Source: Burkholderiales bacterium
GTDB taxonomy: Bacteria; Patescibacteriota; Minisyncoccia; Phycocordibacterales; UBA9973
Length of the DNA: 64,000 nucleotides
Direction: 5' to 3'
Assembly: GCA_023701005.1 (NCBI GenBank)
Contig: JAMPXW010000002.1
Span: forward strand, 113,053-177,052
Part shown: positions 2,910-58,617 of the stretch, in pieces
How positions within the stretch are numbered: position 1 is the stretch's first letter
How the letters are laid out: each line of letters begins with the position of its first letter
Made by a program: the position numbers and the translations under genes
The notes under the pieces: generated by a model
What the model saw: only the letters and a program-made list of their open reading frames with translations
Databases searched by the model: none
What the model was told of the DNA's origin: nothing

Positions 2910-3398
2910 TTATTTATTTATATTCTCGTTAGATATACGGCGAATGGGTTGCTCTAAAATTCCCATTACAATAAAAATAATTAATATCAATATTGTAGCA
3001 ATAATCGCTAAATTAAAAAATCCAAAACCTACTGCCATGCCTATACCTGCCGTAACCCACAAACCTCCTGCGGTAGTAAGACCTATCAATCTATCTCCCT
3101 GCATTATTATCAAACCAGCACTCAAAAAACCAACACCCATTATAATATTTGCTGGCATCATTCCTGGATTAAAACCACTTACTCCTGAATATTTTTGTGA
3201 CAAAAACTCTGAAACTATAACAAATAAAGTCGCCCCCATAGCTACCAGAGAATGAGTCTTCATGCCTGCTTCTTTGTGAACAAAAAGGCGTTCTGCCCCG
3301 ATAAACATACCCAAAACAACTGCTACTGATAATTTTAAAATTATTTCACTATTTTGTGTAAAAAATTGTTCCATAAAAGCATTATATAACAATTCCAC
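2910..3398 (-). CDS. MgtC/SapB family membrane protein
   Basis: 162 aa, 4 TM, 'GMFIGAERLFVHKEAGMKTHSLVAMGATLF' MgtC signature. Confidence 0.7.
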   Translation of the reverse strand: MELLYNAFMEQFFTQNSEIILKLSVAVVLGMFIGAERLFVHKEAGMKTHSLVAMGATLFVIVSEFLSQKYSGVSGFNPGMMPANIIMGVGFLSAGLIIMQGDRLIGLTTAGGLWVTAGIGMAVGFGFFNLAIIATILILIIFIVMGILEQPIRRISNENINK

Positions 3399-4584
3399 CT
3401 CCTAAACAAACATCTTTATCATATAGAACACAAGACTGACCACTAGCAATCAATATCGGTTTTTCAAATATCAGTTTCGCGGAAGCCGGGCTTCCGCAAA
3501 TTATTTTACAAGGTAAAAATTCACCATGATAACGAATCTGAGCAATATATTCTTTATCAGGTCTTGGAATATCAGAAATCCAATTTGTATCTTTAATTTT
3601 CACAAAATACAAAGCAGAGCTTTTTTCGGCATACGCAATGGTATTGTCTTTTATTGTTTCCAGGTTGGAGTGCGGGCCGTGAAAAAGCTGCTGCTTTGTA
3701 TTTTGTGATACATATAAAATATTCTTTTTTAAATCCTTAGCAACTACATAATAAGCTCCATCATTCGGACTCTTTTTTGTAATTGTAAAACCATGTCTCT
3801 CTCCTAAGGTGTGAAAAACAACACCGTTGTGATAACCAATAACCTCTCCAAAGTCAGGCCCTTTTAAAAATTTAAAGTCCGACCTTATTACTTTGCCTTT
3901 TTTTTCTTTTATATAATGTTTTAAAAAATCTTTCAAATCTACTGCCCCCAAAAAACAGATTCCTTGACTATCTTTCTTTTCCGCCACAGGTAATTTAAAT
4001 TTATTTGCTAATTTACGAACTTCAGATTTTTTTAAATGACCGATAGGAAACAAAATATTTTTTAATTGTTCTTGCTTAAGAGTCCAAAGAAAATAACTTT
4101 GATCTTTAGAAGGATCTATTCCCTTCTCTAAAAAATAAAAATTTTCTAAATTCTTAAGATCGGCCCTTTTTGAAGATTTAAAGGACGACTTTTGAAAATT
4201 TGTATTTTTTGCATAATGTCCTGTAGCCACATAGTCAGCTCCCATTTTGATAGCTTTTTTCAAGAAAGCACCAAATTTAACTTCTTTATTACACATCACA
4301 TCTGGATTAGGAGTTCTTCCCATTTTGTATTCAGATATCATATAATCTGCAACCTCTTTTTTGTAAACATCTGAAAGATCAAAAGTCAAAAATGGAATAT
4401 CTAAAAAAGTAGCCACACGCATGGCATCGAGTCTTTCCTCTTCTTCATTGCATTCTAAAAAATCTGGATGCCACGTACGTATAAAAACACCAACGACTTC
4501 ATAACCTTGTCGTTTTAATAAAGCTGCTGAGACAGCACTATCTACACCCCCAGAAAGACCAACAAAAACTACCTTTTTCTCCAT
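3382..4584 (-). CDS. mnmA: tRNA-specific 2-thiouridylase MnmA
   Basis: PP-loop 'VGLSGGVDSAVSA', 400 aa, conserved Cys residues of MnmA. Confidence 0.85.
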   Translation of the reverse strand: MEKKVVFVGLSGGVDSAVSAALLKRQGYEVVGVFIRTWHPDFLECNEEEERLDAMRVATFLDIPFLTFDLSDVYKKEVADYMISEYKMGRTPNPDVMCNKEVKFGAFLKKAIKMGADYVATGHYAKNTNFQKSSFKSSKRADLKNLENFYFLEKGIDPSKDQSYFLWTLKQEQLKNILFPIGHLKKSEVRKLANKFKLPVAEKKDSQGICFLGAVDLKDFLKHYIKEKKGKVIRSDFKFLKGPDFGEVIGYHNGVVFHTLGERHGFTITKKSPNDGAYYVVAKDLKKNILYVSQNTKQQLFHGPHSNLETIKDNTIAYAEKSSALYFVKIKDTNWISDIPRPDKEYIAQIRYHGEFLPCKIICGSPASAKLIFEKPILIASGQSCVLYDKDVCLGGGIVI

Positions 4585-4717: not shown

Positions 4718-5245
4718 CTACAATTTCATTAATTTTTTGTAAAGCTCATATGTAGCATAAGCATCCGATAAAGCACTATGAGCTTTTTTGTTTTCTATCT
4801 CAAAATGTTTACACAATTCTCTCAAAGAAAAATGTGTTATATCTTTCTTGTGGTTTAATTTAGCCCAAGCTATAGAGATGGTATCAAGCTTATGATAATG
4901 CATGCTATTTTTTATTCCAGTTTTGGAAAAACTAAAATCCAAAAAACTTGAATCAAAAGATACATTTTGACCAACCATAATACAATCAGTAACTTTTTTG
5001 GAGAAAATTTTCATTGCCTCTTTTAAAGACATAGCCTCTTCCCAATCTTTTGGACTATAATGATTTATCTTTAGAGAGACAGGGTCCGCATTTTCTATAT
5101 TCTCTGGTTTTATTTTTAATTCAAATTTTTCAATCACCTCTAAGTCTTGAGCCACAATCACACAACCAATCTCAATAATCTCATGTTTTAAGACATCTAA
5201 TCCCGTGGCTTCTATATCAACAAAAGCTAAATTGTGTTTTCTCAT
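4718..5245 (-). CDS. DEDD 3'-5' exonuclease (DnaQ/epsilon-like)
   Basis: Exo I motif 'FVDIEATGLD', Exo III 'HSALSDAYAT'; 175 aa. Confidence 0.75.
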   Translation of the reverse strand: MRKHNLAFVDIEATGLDVLKHEIIEIGCVIVAQDLEVIEKFELKIKPENIENADPVSLKINHYSPKDWEEAMSLKEAMKIFSKKVTDCIMVGQNVSFDSSFLDFSFSKTGIKNSMHYHKLDTISIAWAKLNHKKDITHFSLRELCKHFEIENKKAHSALSDAYATYELYKKLMKL

Positions 5246-5257
5246 AATTTTAATTTT

Positions 5258-6214
5258 TTATTTTAAATATTTTTGTTTATTTATTTTATGTTCCTCAAAA
5301 GTCCTAGCAAAATGTACTTGGCCTTCTTTGCCATGCAAATAATAAAGATAAGAAGAATTCATCGGATTTATGGCCGCTTCGATAGCTTCTATCCCCGGAT
5401 TCGAAATAGGACTAGAGGGCAAACCTTTTGTTTTATATGTACTTGGCTCAGCATCTACCTGCAAAGGCATGCCAATAGAAATTCTCTTCCACAAAATCCC
5501 CGAGATCAACTTCCTGTCTTCATCTCCTTTAGATTCTTTTTCTAATATAGAAGCCATCGTTATTATATCTTTTTCTGTTTTCTTAGAAATATCTATTTTG
5601 GATTTAAACAATGCGATTTTTTTCTGAAAATTATTACTCATATATTCAATAACTTCTTCTTCTGTGTCTGTTGTTAAGAAAAAATAAGTATCAGGGAAAA
5701 GATATCCTTCTCTTGCTTTGGTCAAAAATTTATCTTTATCGAAATTAGGTAATTTAGTATCAAAAAGTTTTGATATCTCCATGAGATTAAAACCTTCAGG
5801 AACTGTGACTTTCACTGGAAGAAGGTTGTGTTCACCATTTGCTATACGTTTAGCTATCTCAAAAACAAATAATCTGTCTTCAAACATATAATCTCCAGAT
5901 TCAATATGTTTTTCTCCATCAAAAATTATGACAAATGTTTCGAAAATAGCTCTAGATTTTATAATATTATTTTTTTCTAAATCCCTAGACAAAGACCTAA
6001 GGCTAGAACCCTCTTTTATATTTATTATTTTTCCTACCGGGAAATCTTTAGGCACACTAAAAAAAAGAACATAAATAAAAAGAAGAAAAACGATAAAAAG
6101 GAGAAAATAAAACAATATCTTCTTTTGAAGAAATTTATTATTACCAAACTTGGACATTGAATGTCCAAGTGCTCCAAAATCTTGTATTTTATCTTCTTTA
6201 TTAAAATCTTCCAT
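5258..6214 (-). CDS. mltG: endolytic murein transglycosylase MltG (YceG-like)
   Basis: N-terminal TM, C-terminal 'LQVDAEPSTYKTKGLPSSPISNPGIEAIEAAINP' YceG signature. Confidence 0.75.
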   Translation of the reverse strand: MEDFNKEDKIQDFGALGHSMSKFGNNKFLQKKILFYFLLFIVFLLFIYVLFFSVPKDFPVGKIINIKEGSSLRSLSRDLEKNNIIKSRAIFETFVIIFDGEKHIESGDYMFEDRLFVFEIAKRIANGEHNLLPVKVTVPEGFNLMEISKLFDTKLPNFDKDKFLTKAREGYLFPDTYFFLTTDTEEEVIEYMSNNFQKKIALFKSKIDISKKTEKDIITMASILEKESKGDEDRKLISGILWKRISIGMPLQVDAEPSTYKTKGLPSSPISNPGIEAIEAAINPMNSSYLYYLHGKEGQVHFARTFEEHKINKQKYLK

Positions 6215-8726: not shown

Positions 8727-10538
8727 TTAAATCTTTTTCCCTCTACCTGCCCTTACTCTATCAATCTCAGTTAAATATTTCTTACGAATTCTTACTGATT
8801 TCGGAGTAACTTCTAAATATTCATCTCCATTCATTACCTCCAATCCTCTTTCTATGCTTAGAATAAAAGGTGGATTTAAATAAATAGCATCATCTGTACC
8901 TGAGGCTCGCATGTTTGTAAGCTGTTTACCTTTTGTCGGATTGACACTCATGTCATCACCCTTCAAAACATTACCTATAACCATACCTTCATATACCTCT
9001 GTACCATGCTCAACATACATAATACCACGTTCTTGTAAATTTGCAAGTGCAAAGGCTACAGCCTTTCCATGGACAATGGAAACCATAGACCCATACTCTC
9101 TTTTTTTGATCTCGTCTGCATATTTCTTAAAACCTATAACTCTAGAAGACATGATGCCCTCTCCTTTTGTATCTATGATAAATTCACCACGATAGCCCAA
9201 CAATCCTCGAGTTGGTATATCAAAAACGATTCTAGCAATACCCTCTTTTTCTGCCATACCACTCATGATGCCTCTCCTTTTACCTATTTTTTCAATAACA
9301 GTACCAGAAAATTCCATAGGCACGTCAATAACTAATTCTTCATATGGTTCTGTTTTTATTCCATTTTCTTCTTTGATAATTACTTCTGGTTGTGATACTT
9401 GCATTTCAAATCCTTCACGACGCATATTTTCTAAAAGAATAGCAATATGTAATTCGCCCCTACCATAAACTTTAAAGAACGAAGGCCCCATCTTGTCACC
9501 CTGGTCTGGAGAAAAATCAACCTTTAGTCCAACATTTATTTCTAATTCTTTTTCTAATCTTTCTTTGATTTGCCTAGAGGTAACATATTTACCTTCCTTG
9601 CCCGCAAAAGGAGAATCATTAACTAAAAAGTTTAGAGAAAGCGTTGGTTCATCTATGGCTATATGAGGAAGTTGTTCTACACTTTCATCTTCACAAATTG
9701 TCTCTCCTATATAAATATCTGGAATACCTGCCAAGAGTACTATATCTCCTGCTGTCGCAGAAGAAACCTCTTTTCTATTTATTCCTTCAAATGTGAAAAG
9801 TTTTGTTATCTTTCCTTTTCTATTATCTTTTTCTCCTTTCACAACAACTTCTTTTGCTGAACTAATCTCTCCAGAATATATTCTCGCCACAGCCATACGT
9901 CCCAAAAAATTATCATACCCTAGATTAAAAACTTGAGCAGACATTTTGCTTTCTCCTTGCAAAGAAGCTGGTGGAACATGTGTAAGCAACATATCTAAAA
10001 GTGGAGACAAATCTTCACTCTCATCGCCCAATTTCCTAAAAGCTTTTCCTTGACGTCCTATCGCATAAATAGTTTCAAAGTTTGCTTGTTCTTCATTTGC
10101 ACCTAGCTCAAAAAACAAATTTAGTACTTCTTCATGTACTCGATGAGGATCTGAAGCTGGCTTATCTATCTTATTTATTACTACTATTGGCTTTATTCCT
10201 AATTCCAATGATTTCTTTAAAACAAATCTTGTTTGTGGCATTGGCCCTTCTACCGCATCTACAAGCAACAAAACAGAATCAACAGCGCGAAGCACACGTT
10301 CTACTTCTGAACCGAAATCTGCGTGGCCGGGCGTATCAACGATATTGATCTTTGTGCCCTTGTACATTATAGAAGTATTTTTTGAATAAATAGTAATACC
10401 TCGCTCTTTTTCTAGAGCATTTGAATCCATCGAGATATTTTCATCTTGTAAGCCACCATTTTGCTTCATTAAAGCATCTGTGAGAGTCGTCTTTCCATGG
10501 TCGACGTGAGCAATGATTGCTATATTTCTGATTTCCAT
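8727..10538 (-). CDS. typA: translational GTPase TypA/BipA
   Basis: '[22 protein letters not shown]' G1 motif, 603 aa, BipA-type rather than LepA N-terminus. Confidence 0.85.
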
Positions 10539-10645: not shown

Positions 10646-11566
10646 TTAAATCTTTTTAGGGAAAATAACAGATAATATTATAGATGAAAAAAGAGCAAAC
10701 ATTATAACTCCAAAAGAAAGAAGTGAAGAAATATGCAAACCGAATATTCCAGAAAGCATCTTTAAACCAATAAAAAGCAAAATGAAAGCTAATCCTTTTT
10801 GTAAATGATGAAAACGATGTAAAACATTTTCTATTAAGAAAAACAAAGCACGAAGACCCATAATGGCAAGAATGTTTGAAGTAAAAACAATAAATAAGTT
10901 TTGAGAAATCGCAAAAACAGCGGGGATAGAATCAACGGCAAAAATAATATCTGTGGCTTCCACCAAAAGAACTATCATAAACAAAGAAGTAAAATAAAAC
11001 TTACCATTTTCTCGAACGAAAAATCTACCATTGTGATGACTATTTGTGAACGGCAGAATTTTATGCGCAAATTTTATTACTTTATTATTATTAAAATCTA
11101 TATGTTCTTCTTTTTTATCTTTTAATAATTTTATACCTGTATACAAAAGCACTGCACCAAAAATATATAATACCCAATAAAACTGATGAATAATATAGGC
11201 CCCTGCTCCTATAAAAATTCCTCGGAAAACGATGGCACCTAAAATACCCCAAAACAATGCTTTGTGATGATATTTTTCTTCTAATTTAAAGAAACTGAAT
11301 ATAAGCATTATCACAAAGAGATTATCTACGGAAAGCATCTTTTCTGTGACATAAGCGCTGATGAATTCAGCTGCCAACTCTTTACTCATATATAAAGAAA
11401 CAAGAAAACCAAACACGAGAGCTATGGCAATCCAAAATAAAGATTGATAAAGCGCTTCTTTAAATTCTATTTTATGACTTTTTCTATTGAAATAGCCTAG
11501 GTCAACAGCCAAAAAACCTACGATGATGACAGTAAATAAAATCATTAAATTACTTTGAGCTTCCAT
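10646..11566 (-). CDS. TerC family integral membrane protein
   Basis: 306 aa multi-TM; 'EKMLSVDNLFVIMLIF' TerC motif. Confidence 0.7.
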   Translation of the reverse strand: MEAQSNLMILFTVIIVGFLAVDLGYFNRKSHKIEFKEALYQSLFWIAIALVFGFLVSLYMSKELAAEFISAYVTEKMLSVDNLFVIMLIFSFFKLEEKYHHKALFWGILGAIVFRGIFIGAGAYIIHQFYWVLYIFGAVLLYTGIKLLKDKKEEHIDFNNNKVIKFAHKILPFTNSHHNGRFFVRENGKFYFTSLFMIVLLVEATDIIFAVDSIPAVFAISQNLFIVFTSNILAIMGLRALFFLIENVLHRFHHLQKGLAFILLFIGLKMLSGIFGLHISSLLSFGVIMFALFSSIILSVIFPKKI

Positions 11567-17390: not shown

Positions 17391-18569
17391 TCAATTATAC
17401 CACTTTTTTAACTTTAACAAAATTTGAGATAAAACTTTTAAAGTATAATCTATATCTTCTTTTTTTGTATTTTTACCCAAAGAAAAACGAAGACCTCCAA
17501 TCTCCTTCTGCGGAAGCAAGGCTTCTGCAGAATGCAAAGCTTCTATAACATAAGAACCTTCTTTGTTGGAACTTTTACAAGCACTCTTTGAAGATGTCAT
17601 CACACCCTTAGCAGACAATTCGAGCACCAAAAGATCACTCGGGATTTTATTAAATGTCACATTTATGTTGTTTGGCAATCTATTCTCCAGATCTCCATTT
17701 AAAAAACAACCAAATTTAATAATTTTTTTAATAAAATAATCTCTTAATTTTATTAAACGTTTATTTTCTTTTTCACTACCTTCTATAGTAGATTTCAATG
17801 CTTTAGATAATTTTAATATTTCTGGTAGATTTTCTGTACCTCCTCTTAATCCCATCTCTTGATCACCACCACCAAACAAAGGCGAGAGCTTCACGTTTCT
17901 CTTTTTATAAAGCACTCCTATTCTTCCTGCCCTCTCTATTTTAGTTCCTGAAATAGATAATAAATCTACGCCCAATCTTTCAACATTCACATCCAAATAA
18001 TTTATCGCTTGCACAGCATCTGTATGGAACAGGCAAGGCCTGTCTTTTAACAGGCCTTGCCTGTTATTTTTATTAAAATGTCTAATCTCTTTTGCTATTT
18101 CTCTAATAGGCTGAATCGTGCCTATCTCATTATTTGCATACATCACAGACACAAGGACAGTGTTCCCTTTCAACTCTTTTCTAATTTTTTTAGGATCTAA
18201 TATTCCATTTTCTTCTACTGGCAATATTGTTATCTCTGCTAGTTTTCTTTTTTCAAGAATTTTAAATGTTTCCAAAACAGAAGGATGTTCAATATTGGTA
18301 GTTATTATATGAGGTTTAATTTTGTTAGAATTTTTTTCTAAAAAAGAATAAACAGCACCTTGTATGGCAAGGTTGTTGCTTTCCGTACCACCACTAGTAA
18401 AAAATACTTCATCATCATGAGCTCCCAACACCAAAGCTACTTCTTTTCTTGCTTTTTGTAGATCTTTTTTAGCTTTTACGCCGAGAGAATGTATCGAACT
18501 TGGATTAGGCAGGACAGAAGCTGCGTAATCTAAATATATATTCTTTAATTTTCGGTTTGATTTTGCCAT
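17391..18569 (-). CDS. cysteine desulfurase / class-V aminotransferase (IscS/NifS family)
   Basis: 'FFTSGGTESNNLAI', 'LFHTDAVQAI', PLP-Lys region 'SISGTKI'; 392 aa. Confidence 0.75.
   Translation of the reverse strand: MAKSNRKLKNIYLDYAASVLPNPSSIHSLGVKAKKDLQKARKEVALVLGAHDDEVFFTSGGTESNNLAIQGAVYSFLEKNSNKIKPHIITTNIEHPSVLETFKILEKRKLAEITILPVEENGILDPKKIRKELKGNTVLVSVMYANNEIGTIQPIREIAKEIRHFNKNNRQGLLKDRPCLFHTDAVQAINYLDVNVERLGVDLLSISGTKIERAGRIGVLYKKRNVKLSPLFGGGDQEMGLRGGTENLPEILKLSKALKSTIEGSEKENKRLIKLRDYFIKKIIKFGCFLNGDLENRLPNNINVTFNKIPSDLLVLELSAKGVMTSSKSACKSSNKEGSYVIEALHSAEALLPQKEIGGLRFSLGKNTKKEDIDYTLKVLSQILLKLKKWYN
18028..18065. repeat. perfect 16-bp inverted repeat with 6-nt loop, embedded in-frame in cysteine desulfurase CDS
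   Basis: AACAGGCAAGGCCTGT-CTTTTA-ACAGGCCTTGCCTGTT; ~55 % GC in a ~30 % GC genome; encodes 'NRQGLLKDRPC', an apparent insertion relative to IscS 'HGVLFHVDA' region. Confidence 0.7.
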
Positions 18570-20912: not shown

Positions 20913-20984
20913 GGCCTGGTAGCCAAGTGGTAAGGCAGAGATCTGCAAAATCTCTATGCGGCGGTTCAATTCCGCCCCAGGCCT
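20913..20984 (+). tRNA. tRNA-Cys (GCA)
   Basis: manual fold: acceptor GGCCTGG/CCAGGCC, anticodon loop CUGCAAA, T-loop TTCAATT. Confidence 0.8.
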
Positions 20985-21053
20985 CCCTAAAACTTTTGTT
21001 TTAGAATTGTAATTTAAAAATAAATATATATAATAAATTGGTTAGTTTAAAAT

Positions 21054-21135
21054 GCCCGGATGGCGGAACTGGTATACGCGCACGACTTAAAATCGTGTCT
21101 CGCAAGGGATGTGGGTTCGATTCCCACTCCGGGCA
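21054..21135 (+). tRNA. tRNA-Leu (TAA), class II
   Basis: acceptor GCCCGGA/TCCGGGC, anticodon loop CUUAAAA, long variable arm, T-loop TTCGATT. Confidence 0.8.
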
Positions 21136-21169
21136 CATTGCAAAATTAATTTTGCAAATAAAATAACTT

Positions 21170-21189
21170 ATTTTCCGCCCTTAGCTGTT
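21170..21189 (+). repeat. 19-bp copy of the tRNA-Lys upstream/5' end (TTATTTTCCGCCCTTAGCT) not followed by a tRNA body
   Basis: identical to 21242-21260; downstream sequence does not fold as tRNA. Confidence 0.55.
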
Positions 21190-21248
21190 TTGGTAGGTAT
21201 ACAGCTAAATAAATGTTCTTTTGTTATAATGTTTCAATTATTTATTTT

Positions 21249-21321
21249 CCGCCCTTAGCTCAGCTGGTAGAGCAGATCCCTCTTAAGGATAAGGTCGAAG
21301 GTTCGATCCCTTCAGGGCGGA
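21249..21321 (+). tRNA. tRNA-Lys (CTT)
   Basis: acceptor CCGCCCT/AGGGCGG, D-arm GCTCAGCTGGTAGAGC, anticodon loop CUCUUAA, T-loop TTCGATC. Confidence 0.8.
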
Positions 21322-21367
21322 CACTTTAAAAATATTTTTAAAGTATTCGTTTTTAGTTTTTATATAT

Positions 21368-21451
21368 GCCGAGGTGGCGAAATTGGCAGACGCACTTGCC
21401 TTAGGAGCAAGCGAGAGTAATCTCATGGGAGTTCAAGTCTCCCCCTCGGCA
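21368..21451 (+). tRNA. tRNA-Leu (TAG), class II
   Basis: acceptor GCCGAGG/CCTCGGC, anticodon loop CUUAGGA, long variable arm, T-loop TTCAAGT. Confidence 0.8.
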
Positions 21452-21458
21452 CAAATTA

Positions 21459-21496
21459 GTTAAGGGCCGCCCTTCAATTGAAGGGCGGCCCTTAAC
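21459..21496 (+). terminator. 38-bp perfect GC-rich palindrome closing the tRNA cluster (likely terminator)
   Basis: GTTAAGGGCCGCCCTTCAA/TTGAAGGGCGGCCCTTAAC; followed by T-rich sequence. Confidence 0.55.
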
Positions 21497-21504
21497 TTAA
21501 TGAC

Positions 21505-33671: not shown

Positions 33672-33690
33672 AAATACTGAAACTAAATAC

Positions 33691-33722
33691 AAAAAAGCCC
33701 CCGCAGTAGCGGGGGCTTTTTT
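33691..33722. terminator. rho-independent terminator, GCCCCCGC-AGTA-GCGGGGGC, copy 1
   Basis: 8-bp G/C stem flanked by A6/T6; identical to 35177-35208. Confidence 0.75.
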
Positions 33723-33750
33723 GTATAAATATCTATTCTCTAAATTAAAA

Positions 33751-35061
33751 CTACGGAGCTGAAGTTATTGTCTCCCAAGTTGTAGTGTAAACATTTAATT
33801 TATTTGCTGTCGTATTGTAAATAACCATTCCGGCAGTTGGACTCGGAATCGCATCTCTCTGAGCCGTAGTCATTCGAGGAGGCATAAAAGCTTTGGTGGT
33901 ACTTGTTAAATCAACAATAGCATTTGCATTTGGACTCGTCGTCCCGATGCCGACGTTGCCATTGTTATTAATGAGCACTTTGTTATTCGCATATAAATAA
34001 TTGGACGTGCTCTCATTATATGCTGCAATAATTTGTTCATTGTCGTTATATAATCCTGATTCATTTGACGAAAAACTGCCTTTTGGTCTGATAGCGATCC
34101 CGCTAGAATAAAAACCGCCGCCTGAACCAACCTGGCCCTGTACTCCCAATGAATAATTTCCAAAGTCTTCATTGTAACTAGAGTTGCCGACCAATATGGT
34201 TTGGCCTGGTGTTGTTAATCTCATTCCGCCTTCAGGATCTATCCTTACGTAGCTGTTATAGTCAATAGTATCCCCGATGATCAATTGACCGATATTATTC
34301 CTATATATTTTCATGGATGAATAACCCAAAGGGTCGCTCCTTGTTTCCGGGAATTCAAATGCAACCAAATTATTAGTCCCGCCGACTGTAGCATTTCCTC
34401 GGAAGATCATAGTTCCATTTACATCTAACTTTGCTGCTGGTGCTGTAGTACCTATGCCGACGTTGCCGCTATTTGTAATTATCATTTTAGTTGCTTTGGT
34501 TCCAGTAGTGTTTGTGGTATCAAAAGTGATTTTAGTAGGAGTTATATTTGTACTTACTGTTCCATCCACCTTAAAATTTATTTCAGCTGCATCTTTATAT
34601 TGAGTTCCATCATGAGCTTGTGCCACCCAAGCCATTATAGTATCACCACTAACAACAGCTGTGGGACTAGCTGATGTACCCCTAGAACGTCCGATATGAA
34701 TAAAATTACCCATCCAACTAGTATCATTGTGTGCTTGTATTTTAACTTGATTGAGAGTATCTGCTTCAAAAAATATTGTTGGCGAAGAACTTGAAATAAC
34801 ATGCAGTTTCGCTGTTGGACTCGTAGTCCCTATCCCCACCTTCCCCGTCATCAAACCACCACCAATAATTATATTACCAGTAGTCGTAGTCGAACCTAGG
34901 TTAATATTTGAAGAAGCTTCACCATTTAGGTTAAGTGCTCCACTACTTGAAACAGTCAATGCTTCTAGTGTTAAGGCAGCATTGGCAAAACTTGCCCCTA
35001 TACCTAGAACCAAAAACAGGGCGACAATACCTATACTCACATATTTTAATTTTTTAGACAT
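33751..35061 (-). CDS. secreted Gly/Thr/Ser-rich surface protein with phage tail-fibre-like repeats
   Basis: signal peptide; repeated 'GNIIIGGG...GKVGIGTTSPTAKLHV', 'GNVGIGTTAPAAKLDV', 'GNVGIGTTSPNANAIVDL'; C-terminal 'MTTAQRDAI...GMVIYNTT'. Confidence 0.5.
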   Translation of the reverse strand: MSKKLKYVSIGIVALFLVLGIGASFANAALTLEALTVSSSGALNLNGEASSNINLGSTTTTGNIIIGGGLMTGKVGIGTTSPTAKLHVISSSSPTIFFEADTLNQVKIQAHNDTSWMGNFIHIGRSRGTSASPTAVVSGDTIMAWVAQAHDGTQYKDAAEINFKVDGTVSTNITPTKITFDTTNTTGTKATKMIITNSGNVGIGTTAPAAKLDVNGTMIFRGNATVGGTNNLVAFEFPETRSDPLGYSSMKIYRNNIGQLIIGDTIDYNSYVRIDPEGGMRLTTPGQTILVGNSSYNEDFGNYSLGVQGQVGSGGGFYSSGIAIRPKGSFSSNESGLYNDNEQIIAAYNESTSNYLYANNKVLINNNGNVGIGTTSPNANAIVDLTSTTKAFMPPRMTTAQRDAIPSPTAGMVIYNTTANKLNVYTTTWETITSAP

Positions 35062-35176
35062 ATACTATTATCCTGCAAGACTTTATGTAAAGCAGAATTA
35101 ATTAAATTAATAACAAAATAATTATAACTCCTATTGCCTTGACTTTAAATAGATGAAGTGGATAAAACTGTGTATA

Positions 35177-35208
35177 CAAAAAGCCCCCGCAGTAGCGGGG
35201 GCTTTTTG
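35177..35208. terminator. rho-independent terminator, GCCCCCGC-AGTA-GCGGGGGC, copy 2
   Basis: identical hairpin to 33691-33722. Confidence 0.75.
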
Positions 35209-35224
35209 TATTTTTAATTATTAT

Positions 35225-58592: not shown

Positions 58593-58617
58593 CCCCTCTC
58601 CTTAATAAGGAGAGGGG
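58593..58617 (+). repeat. GC/purine-rich hairpin CCCCTCTCCTT-AAT-AAGGAGAGGGG upstream of secG
   Basis: 11-bp perfect stem; no flanking U-run. Confidence 0.5.

Follow-up and report, generated by a model that had tools for sequence, protein, structure and literature searches.

A palindrome read in frame through a cysteine desulfurase gene is probably a copy of a transposase-associated repeat family of Patescibacteria

We analysed a 64,000-nucleotide stretch of contig JAMPXW010000002.1 (the window, in which position 1 is the first letter) and in particular a GC-rich palindrome that lies inside a gene for a cysteine desulfurase and keeps its reading frame. The two features concerned are as follows.

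17391..18569, minus strand: host gene for an intact, NifS/IscS-like cysteine desulfurase of 392 aa (class V aminotransferase), assigned from its open reading frame (ORF), PF00266, matches to solved structures and relatives
18028..18065, no strand assigned: 38-nt perfect palindrome of the 'CAGGCAAGRCCTG' family, characterised by repeat finding, translation and folding, and read here as a probable doublet of repetitive extragenic palindromic (REP) units, like the REP doublets forming hairpins (REPINs)

On the plus strand the palindrome is made up of AACAGGCAAGGCCTGT (18028-18043), the loop CTTTTA (18044-18049) and ACAGGCCTTGCCTGTT (18050-18065). A first-pass annotation made from the letters alone had described a perfect 16-bp inverted repeat around a CTTTTA loop, and the repeat finder, run on the window, returned the same two arms, each of 16 nt, 100% complementary and 6 nt apart. 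The GC content given in that annotation, ~55% against ~30%, holds for the arms (56%) and for the background (31-32% locally, with a range of 29-35% in the window) but not for the whole 38-mer, which stands at 50%. Each arm is in turn a mini-hairpin of 7+3+7 nt, AACAGGC-AAG-GCCTGTT. When the window was shuffled 40 times, perfect stems with loops of up to 12 nt reached no more than 9-12 bp, compared with the 16 bp observed; the palindrome is real and no product of chance. As RNA its predicted folding energy is -33.8 kcal/mol (z = -7.3), and for the DNA the value is -19.8 kcal/mol (z = -8.1). An Rfam search of the gene region found no family and returned only sub-threshold noise (snR34, U7, mir-1972). 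On the gene's own strand the downstream tail is UCCAUACAG, without a U-run. On the plus strand, which is antisense to the gene, ATTTTTATT comes next after the hairpin, and the two together match by sequence the pattern of an intrinsic terminator; the T-run is found there because it is the complement of the Lys/Asn-rich codons upstream.

The palindrome is read in frame on the minus strand of the ORF as NRQGLLKDRPCL, N-R-Q-G-L-L-K-D-R-P-C-L just ahead of FHTDAVQ, within the protein stretch NNRQGLLKDRPC; the initial reading had been NRQGLLKDRPC ahead of LFHTDAVQ. The best solved relative of the host ORF is A. fulgidus IscS2 (4r5f, E = 5e-68), and HMMER alignments to solved IscS/NifS structures open a gap of 10-12 residues precisely at FNKNNRQGLLKD, which agrees with the earlier estimate that canonical IscS is shorter by ~12 residues here. 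PF00266 is on record for the host protein and its relatives; the closest of these are 72% identical, and all that are named are Candidatus Nomurabacteria, Paceibacterota or Patescibacteria. In the alignment H182, D184, Q187, K210 and C331, which we take to be catalytic residues, are invariant among the relatives, and since the host ORF retains them the gene looks functional. In an AlphaFold2 model of the host protein (mean pLDDT 68.8, with a poor C-terminal third) the insert follows helix 155-168 and precedes the D184-bearing strand 180-184; judging from the fold of this weak model, the insert would lie on a surface loop away from the pyridoxal phosphate (PLP) site. Two loops of the enzyme vary greatly in length among homologues, namely site 1, from EIRHF to FHTDAVQ, and site 2, from YVIEALH to EIGGLRFS. 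The public record of the host protein (P0001) is labelled 'Burkholderiales bacterium', yet Patescibacteria (Nomurabacteria/Paceibacterota) are indicated by the GC content of 31%, by the genes present and by every close homologue, and the source is probably a mis-binned or mislabelled metagenome-assembled genome.

Between the conserved blocks NNEIGT and HTDAVQ there are 30 residues in canonical NifS/IscS of Firmicutes and archaea, about 36-37 in most Patescibacteria, 42-48 in carriers of the element and up to 74 in scattered lineages. The larger spacing in the carriers identifies the palindrome as an insertion relative to the family. Related loci were also sought in genomes, and the matches listed are a sample weighted to distant relatives. 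Among the close homologues, P0002, P0003, P0005, P0008, P0013, P0077 and P0111 carry the window palindrome, seen in the proteins as NRQ[GD]L...NR[PS]CL. The DNA of carriers confirms the palindrome: L001 has one arm mismatch, and L003 differs from the window by a G>A change in the left arm and a matching C>T change in the right arm. In addition there are alleles with one arm, L004 (= P0016), which keeps AACAGGCCTTGCCTGTT, and P0033; to judge from their sequences, both would fit a deletion between the internal AACAGG direct repeats. The first-pass annotation had named an ancestral loop as the alternative, with close homologues encoding the same residues in non-palindromic DNA and with no other copies of the element. 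We found the DNA of the homologues to be palindromic, with compensatory changes in the arms, and the copies to be many; the palindrome is not an ancestral loop.

Most of the 120 closest homologues are without the element and the carriers are scattered among them. A neighbour-joining tree of the 120 is star-like and poorly resolved, and carriers often stand beside sequences with other palindromes; as to one ancient insertion versus several, the scattered distribution is only suggestive. In different Patescibacteria site 1 is taken up by different GC-rich palindromes, five in all, whose arms measure 11 to about 21 bp.

L008: 13-bp arms, AAGGTCGGACCTT
L016: 21-bp arms
L017: 19-bp arms
L018: ACCCTCTCCTT-GGT-AAGGAGAGGGT
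L022: about 20-bp arms

Site 1 is a hot spot for palindromes. Some homologues available as protein only (P0047, P0039, P0025 and P0056) have Gly/Arg/Pro-rich inserts at site 1 that resemble translated palindromes. Elsewhere in P0016 (L004 10001-11230) there are further Gly/Pro/Arg/Ser-rich stretches that are missing in relatives, FPLPLGKRVAF, EPASTRTSLGG and KTGLDKNMSKPVFDTG, which may be more translated palindromes.

The palindrome belongs to a dispersed family. Public metagenome contigs were scanned for the exact pattern CAGGCAAGRCCTG-N4-20-CAGGYCTTGCCTG, in which the 13-nt core is identical in both arms, and the scan returned 84 copies on 77 contigs; the first-pass annotation had proposed a search of the whole genome for further copies. 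After removal of duplicates 71-73 remain, all of them perfect palindromes of 32-59 nt. The unit can be written (N)CAGG-CAAGR-CCTG(N), and two inverted units make up the palindrome; the stem runs past the fixed core, both outward and inward, by variable yet complementary bases, and the loop is reduced to zero nt in 19 of 73 copies. At positions left free by the search the arms covary strongly, with a score of 0.257 compared with 0.082 in shuffles, none of 500 of which reaches it; at the R/Y position 51 copies pair A with T and 14 pair G with C, only 4 being mispaired, and pairing at the free positions is kept via A-T/G-C/T-A/C-G exchanges. Singlets with one arm were found in L004, P0033, L137 and L163. 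Five contigs carry 2-3 copies each. The same pattern had no match in viral contigs, and there was no sign of a phage vector in that scan.

About 44% of the non-redundant copies (31/71) are located well within ORFs of 150 aa or more. They use three reading frames, giving the peptides NRQDL.., QARPV.. and TGKTC.., and the 13-nt core was found by inspection to be free of stop codons in all six frames. Besides cysteine desulfurase, the hosts recognised through Pfam are DnaG primase, dihydrouridine synthase (Dus), NAD-dependent DNA ligase (LigA), an XerC/D-like recombinase, LeuRS, ArgRS, LepA, ATP synthase gamma, a GT1 glycosyltransferase and YceG. Among the intergenic copies, 18 lie between co-directional and 9 between convergent ORFs (27 of the 31 that could be classified).

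On four contigs two copies of the family directly bracket an ORF of 216-218 aa.

L099: copies at 5145-5176 and 5859-5890, bracketed ORF 5179-5829
L134: copies at 1118-1149 and 1841-1872, bracketed ORF 1150-1806
L093: copies at 2078-2115 and 2846-2883, bracketed ORF 2147-2797
L147: copies at 2282-2311 and 2998-3027, bracketed ORF 2340-2996

These ORFs match PF01797 Y1_Tnp (IS200-like) at 36-46 bits, with a cut-off of 23, and contain the motifs HFH (HUH) and YIHLNP, the tyrosine motif; of the NCBIfam models, NF047646, REP-associated tyrosine transposase (RAYT), fits them best. Homologous transposase genes on L137, L154 and L156 also adjoin a copy. RAYT-like genes are present in 10 of 77 loci selected by the palindrome and in 0 of 80 loci chosen by cysteine desulfurase alone (Fisher p = 6e-4). 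The family of the RAYT-like protein is large, with 7,694 or more relatives at E <= 1e-10; the named ones are Paceibacterota, Nomurabacteria or Patescibacteria, and JGI names some of them 'REP element-mobilizing transposase RayT'. The first-pass annotation had raised the idea of a hairpin specificity of the IS200/IS605 type, and the position of the copies beside a Y1 transposase gene of the IS200 superfamily, RAYT-like in kind, speaks in its favour. Furthermore, more divergent RAYT-like genes, on L097, L140, L004, L162 and L163, adjoin palindromes of their own.

L097: CCTGTAGCAAGAAC-C-GTTCTTGCTACAGG on both sides of the RAYT-like gene; contains GTAG
L140: TAACGATGT... palindrome on both sides of the RAYT-like gene
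L162: TTAACAGGTCCGACCTGTTTAAACAGGTCGGACCTGTTAA upstream of the RAYT-like gene, hairpin at 9951-9990
L163/L164: singlets ATCGTGAGG-TCTTG-CCTCACGAT and TCGTGAGG-CAAGG-CCTCACGA, with inverted loops, at 9955-9977 and 10668-10688

The RAYT-like genes of L162 and L163/L164 are about 60% identical to the L134 gene, and the hairpins that adjoin them are related yet distinct. The L162 hairpin has AACAGG/CCTGTT stems and a TCCGA/TCGGA centre, linking the CAGG family to the GGTCGGACC palindromes at site 1, while the L163/L164 singlets retain the TCTTG/CAAGG loop on a GTGAGG stem. The L004 contig has its RAYT-like gene at 787-1413 and hairpins of its own at 1426-1501.

We consider it probable, with good confidence, that the palindrome in the desulfurase gene is a copy of a REP/REPIN-type repeat belonging to a RAYT system (Y1/HUH, IS200 superfamily) with a wide distribution in Patescibacteria. 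Each arm would then be a REP singlet and the 38-mer an inverted doublet, or REPIN. The first-pass annotation had suggested a small element, REP-like or akin to MITEs (miniature transposable elements with inverted repeats), that had entered the gene without breaking the frame; this has held up, as canonical enzymes are without the residues, copies stand in frame in unrelated genes and copies flank a Y1 gene. By analogy with the biochemistry of E. coli RAYT and of IS200/IS608 TnpA (PMC3733652 and general knowledge), the hairpin would be mobilised by the RAYT: the transposase would bind the folded single-stranded hairpin, cut beside it, and the element would be re-inserted into single-stranded DNA elsewhere. 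The insertions that survive in genes would be those that keep the frame, are free of stop codons and lie in a loop able to tolerate them, and selection of this kind would explain why two loops of the enzyme collect palindromes repeatedly. The desulfurase copy would sit in the loop between the helix and the strand bearing the PLP-binding Asp, and would lengthen an otherwise intact-looking enzyme by about 12 residues. We infer that the surface loop tolerates the insert, which would be translated through, neutral for the host and without a required role.

Several observations weigh against this assignment. The window holds no second match to an arm, with up to 3 mismatches allowed and 0.27 matches expected, and tblastn with RAYT-like proteins detected no RAYT-like gene in its 64 kb. 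The transposases score 40-49 bits in the NCBIfam RAYT equivalog model (72 for L004), below the cut-off of 80. Contigs of 45-265 kb carry one exact-core copy each, and the copy number per genome looks like a handful, compared with hundreds in classical REPs. The two REP superfamilies that have been described carry a GTAG or CGTC tag (PMC3733652), whereas all copies here have CAGG at the outer end of the core. We sought an empty site in near-identical members of the cluster at 90% identity, from which any target duplication could be read, and found none, the only length variant (P0248 versus P0016) differing by the start codon alone; recent transposition and target-site rules are thus putative. 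Finally, the arms are conserved to a degree that a passive, decaying selfish insert does not predict. Eight orthologous carriers have a protein identity of about 70%, and at four-fold sites they have reached saturation, with 35% identity. Their arms nevertheless agree to 91-100% (mean 96%), and this extends to third codon positions and to the GC-rich codons.

The loop does not share this conservation. It is inverted between orthologues, TTAAAA in the window (18044-18049), L001, L107 and L104 and TTTTTT in L117 and L150, which resembles known flip-flop inversions of hairpin loops. Both G-C and A-T alleles of the arms occur, two copies being mixed, and they combine freely with either loop. Two readings of the arm conservation remain, namely repeated re-insertion or replacement at the exact position, through target specificity and a selection filter, or a nucleotide-level constraint acting in place. 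The nucleotide-perfect copies in essential genes (96% versus 35%), together with the recolonisation of the same loops by different palindrome families, raise the further thought that the REP doublets of Patescibacteria are more than passengers and that the RAYT system or the hairpins have a maintained role. We regard this as speculative and rather unlikely; if it is true, the role could lie in the diversification of surface loops by site-specific re-insertion or exchange, or in a structural function of DNA or RNA in very compact genomes.

The same conservation bears on the explanation that the hairpin, whatever its origin, is now kept since it is useful to the cell, for instance by stopping antisense transcription, slowing the ribosome between folding units, stabilising the mRNA or binding the RAYT or another protein. 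The first-pass annotation had likewise named an intragenic RNA structure as a second idea, and the palindrome may have a role of its own as one. The compensated changes in near-identical arms, among orthologues saturated at four-fold sites, agree with a structure selected by the host, as does the match of the antisense-strand hairpin and ATTTTTATT to a terminator pattern. However, most of the 120 closest homologues do without the element, sister sequences have unrelated palindromes at the same spot, and the identical element occurs in many unrelated genes and intergenic sites and in any frame. The loop lacks conservation, to the point of being flipped (AAAA versus TTTT), Rfam offers no match, the antisense T-run merely mirrors the upstream Lys/Asn-rich codons, and departures of the G-U and A-C kinds are equally rare, which points to symmetry at the level of DNA over RNA pairing. 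We therefore think it unlikely that host selection accounts for the palindrome.

A palindrome might also arise on the spot, by template switching or fold-back synthesis that inverts local sequence, with no mobile element involved. Template switching can turn quasi-palindromes into perfect ones, and the 19 of 73 copies that are perfect through the centre, the outer and inner stem extensions that differ between copies and remain complementary, and the one-arm allele L004 are all in line with such a process, which may well act secondarily in this family. As the primary source it is contradicted by the dispersed family, the 13-nt core recurring in at least 70 unrelated contexts and flanking transposase genes; moreover, arms of 56% GC in a Lys/Asn-rich stretch of 31% GC were not copied from local sequence, and a purely local origin is very improbable. 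The very stable hairpin in a coding region (-33.8 kcal/mol as RNA) could instead mean that the element is not translated at all, through ribosome bypass, RNA removal, a pseudogene or an assembly artefact, and bypassed GC-rich mobile hairpins ('byp') do exist in one yeast mitochondrion (Magnusiomyces). Yet 41 copies in ORFs of at least 150 aa are free of stops, in three frames and with the flanking protein in register, which is no proof alone as the search selected such ORFs; the host ORF retains the residues invariant across relatives, and the same insert is present in independent assemblies (NCBI, JGI, ENA and Logan), so that we give this explanation hardly any credence. A translated copy of a RAYT-associated REP doublet is the reading that we prefer.

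The window contains other palindromes, two of them in frame within genes.

17506..17532, no strand assigned: second in-frame GC-rich palindrome, TTCTGCGGAAGC-AAG-GCTTCTGCAGAA, 27 nt with 1 mismatch, giving the peptide SAEALLPQK at site 2 of the desulfurase
3476..3500, no strand assigned: GC-rich hairpin GCGGAAGCC-G-GGCTTCCGC, in frame as CGSPASAK in ORF 3382-4584(-), with a stem that resembles the site-2 element

By its sequence the palindrome at 17506-17532 resembles a REP singlet, sharing the GC-AAG-GC centre, and orthologues have perfect doublets with the same outer stem at site 2, of 48 nt in L107 and 50 nt in L150. ORF 3382-4584(-) was identified by eye as a tRNA 2-thiouridylase-like (MnmA-like) gene. 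Two suspected decayed palindromes in it (KRADLKNLE and RSDFKFLKGPDF, at about 3863-3876 and 4139-4179) have weak DNA symmetry only, and we do not claim them.

An intergenic palindrome at 58593-58617, CCCCTCTCCTT-AAT-AAGGAGAGGGG, is followed by TTAAGGGGTGAGG (the tail extending to about 58631). The same CCCTCTCC..GGAGAGGG palindrome, with a GGGGTG tail, stands in frame as an insert at site 1 in L018, and it is found twice in L021 and once in L055; it looks like another dispersed family common to several genomes. Directly after a cluster of four tRNAs (20913-21451) lies a 44-nt palindrome without a loop and with one mismatch, TTAGTTAAGGGCCGCCCTTCAA|TTGAAGGGCGGCCCTTAACTTA (21456-21499); its arms are mini-hairpins, AAGGG-CCG-CCCTT, in a doublet architecture as in 18028-18065. 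Near-identical hairpins of 38-40 nt, ATACAAAAA(A)GCCCCCGC-AGTA-GCGGGGGCTTTTT(T)GTAT, at 33687-33726 and 35174-35211 bracket ORF 33751-35061 (-). Runs of A and T on either side give them the look of bidirectional terminators, but their near-identity suggests a repeat family.

Lineage-specific insertions without an explanation abound in the proteins of Patescibacteria, a group whose genomes are usually called streamlined and poor in mobile DNA. REP hairpins that are linked to a very abundant family of RAYT-like transposases and land in tolerant loops of housekeeping enzymes would provide a concrete source for some of these insertions. GC-rich, Gly/Arg/Pro/Ala-rich loop inserts in proteins of this candidate phyla radiation (CPR) should be checked for dyad symmetry of their DNA before they are called functional adaptations, and translated palindromes can mislead alignments, phylogenies and structure predictions. 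The family would also extend the REP-RAYT association to a deep bacterial lineage, and its 13-nt core and 217-aa enzyme offer a compact natural system for testing hairpin recognition.

Among known systems, the Rickettsia palindromic elements (RPEs) were reportedly described by Ogata et al. in 2000. Like the present family they are translated in-frame palindromes at tolerated positions of essential genes in a reduced AT-rich genome. By description, which is the basis of this comparison, RPE-1 is about 100-150 bp long, has no known transposase partner and is confined to Rickettsia, whereas the element here has 38 nt (32-59 in the family) and is associated with a RAYT; RPEs are mentioned in PMC3733652. 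With IS200/IS605 and the transposase-less palindrome-associated transposable elements (PATEs) the family shares the PF01797 superfamily, and recognition of single-stranded DNA hairpins is the chemistry to be expected. Those elements, however, have two different imperfect subterminal hairpins and asymmetric ends, whereas here there is one dyad-symmetric palindrome and the transposase gene lies between two complete copies; the single dyad-symmetric palindrome sets the family apart from an IS200/IS605-derived MITE (PATE). Likened by description and not by sequence, the GC clusters, double-hairpin and byp elements of fungal mitochondria are also GC-rich mobile hairpins in very AT-rich genomes and sometimes lie in coding regions, but they are organellar, without an associated transposase, and some are bypassed and not translated.

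The closest likeness is to the REP/REPIN-RAYT systems (REPtrons) of E. coli, Pseudomonas and Stenotrophomonas. Shared features are short GC-rich hairpins that stand singly or as inverted doublets, two repeats that flank a Y1/HUH gene, a repeat sequence of its own for each transposase lineage, and an intergenic bias to convergent or co-directional gene pairs (27/31 classifiable here). The differences lie in the hosts, Patescibacteria with tiny AT-rich genomes; in the doublet, which is very compact (32-59 nt), usually perfectly symmetric and often so through the centre; in the apparently low copy number per genome; and in transposases that fall below the NCBI RAYT equivalog cut-off. REPs are predominantly extragenic, whereas 31 of 71 copies here lie inside ORFs of at least 150 aa. 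Full-text literature searches returned no paper that links RAYT/REPIN or in-frame palindromes with Patescibacteria/CPR, an absence that is no proof of novelty. REP-RAYT systems, inverted REP doublets and intragenic REPs are known for Proteobacteria and some other phyla (PMC3733652), and REPs inside genes have already been described there; many are dimers that code for 20-30 residues, and the hosts include genes for DNA ligase, tRNA synthetase and replication/repair (PMC3733652). The kind of system is thus already known, and the family in Patescibacteria is an addition to it.

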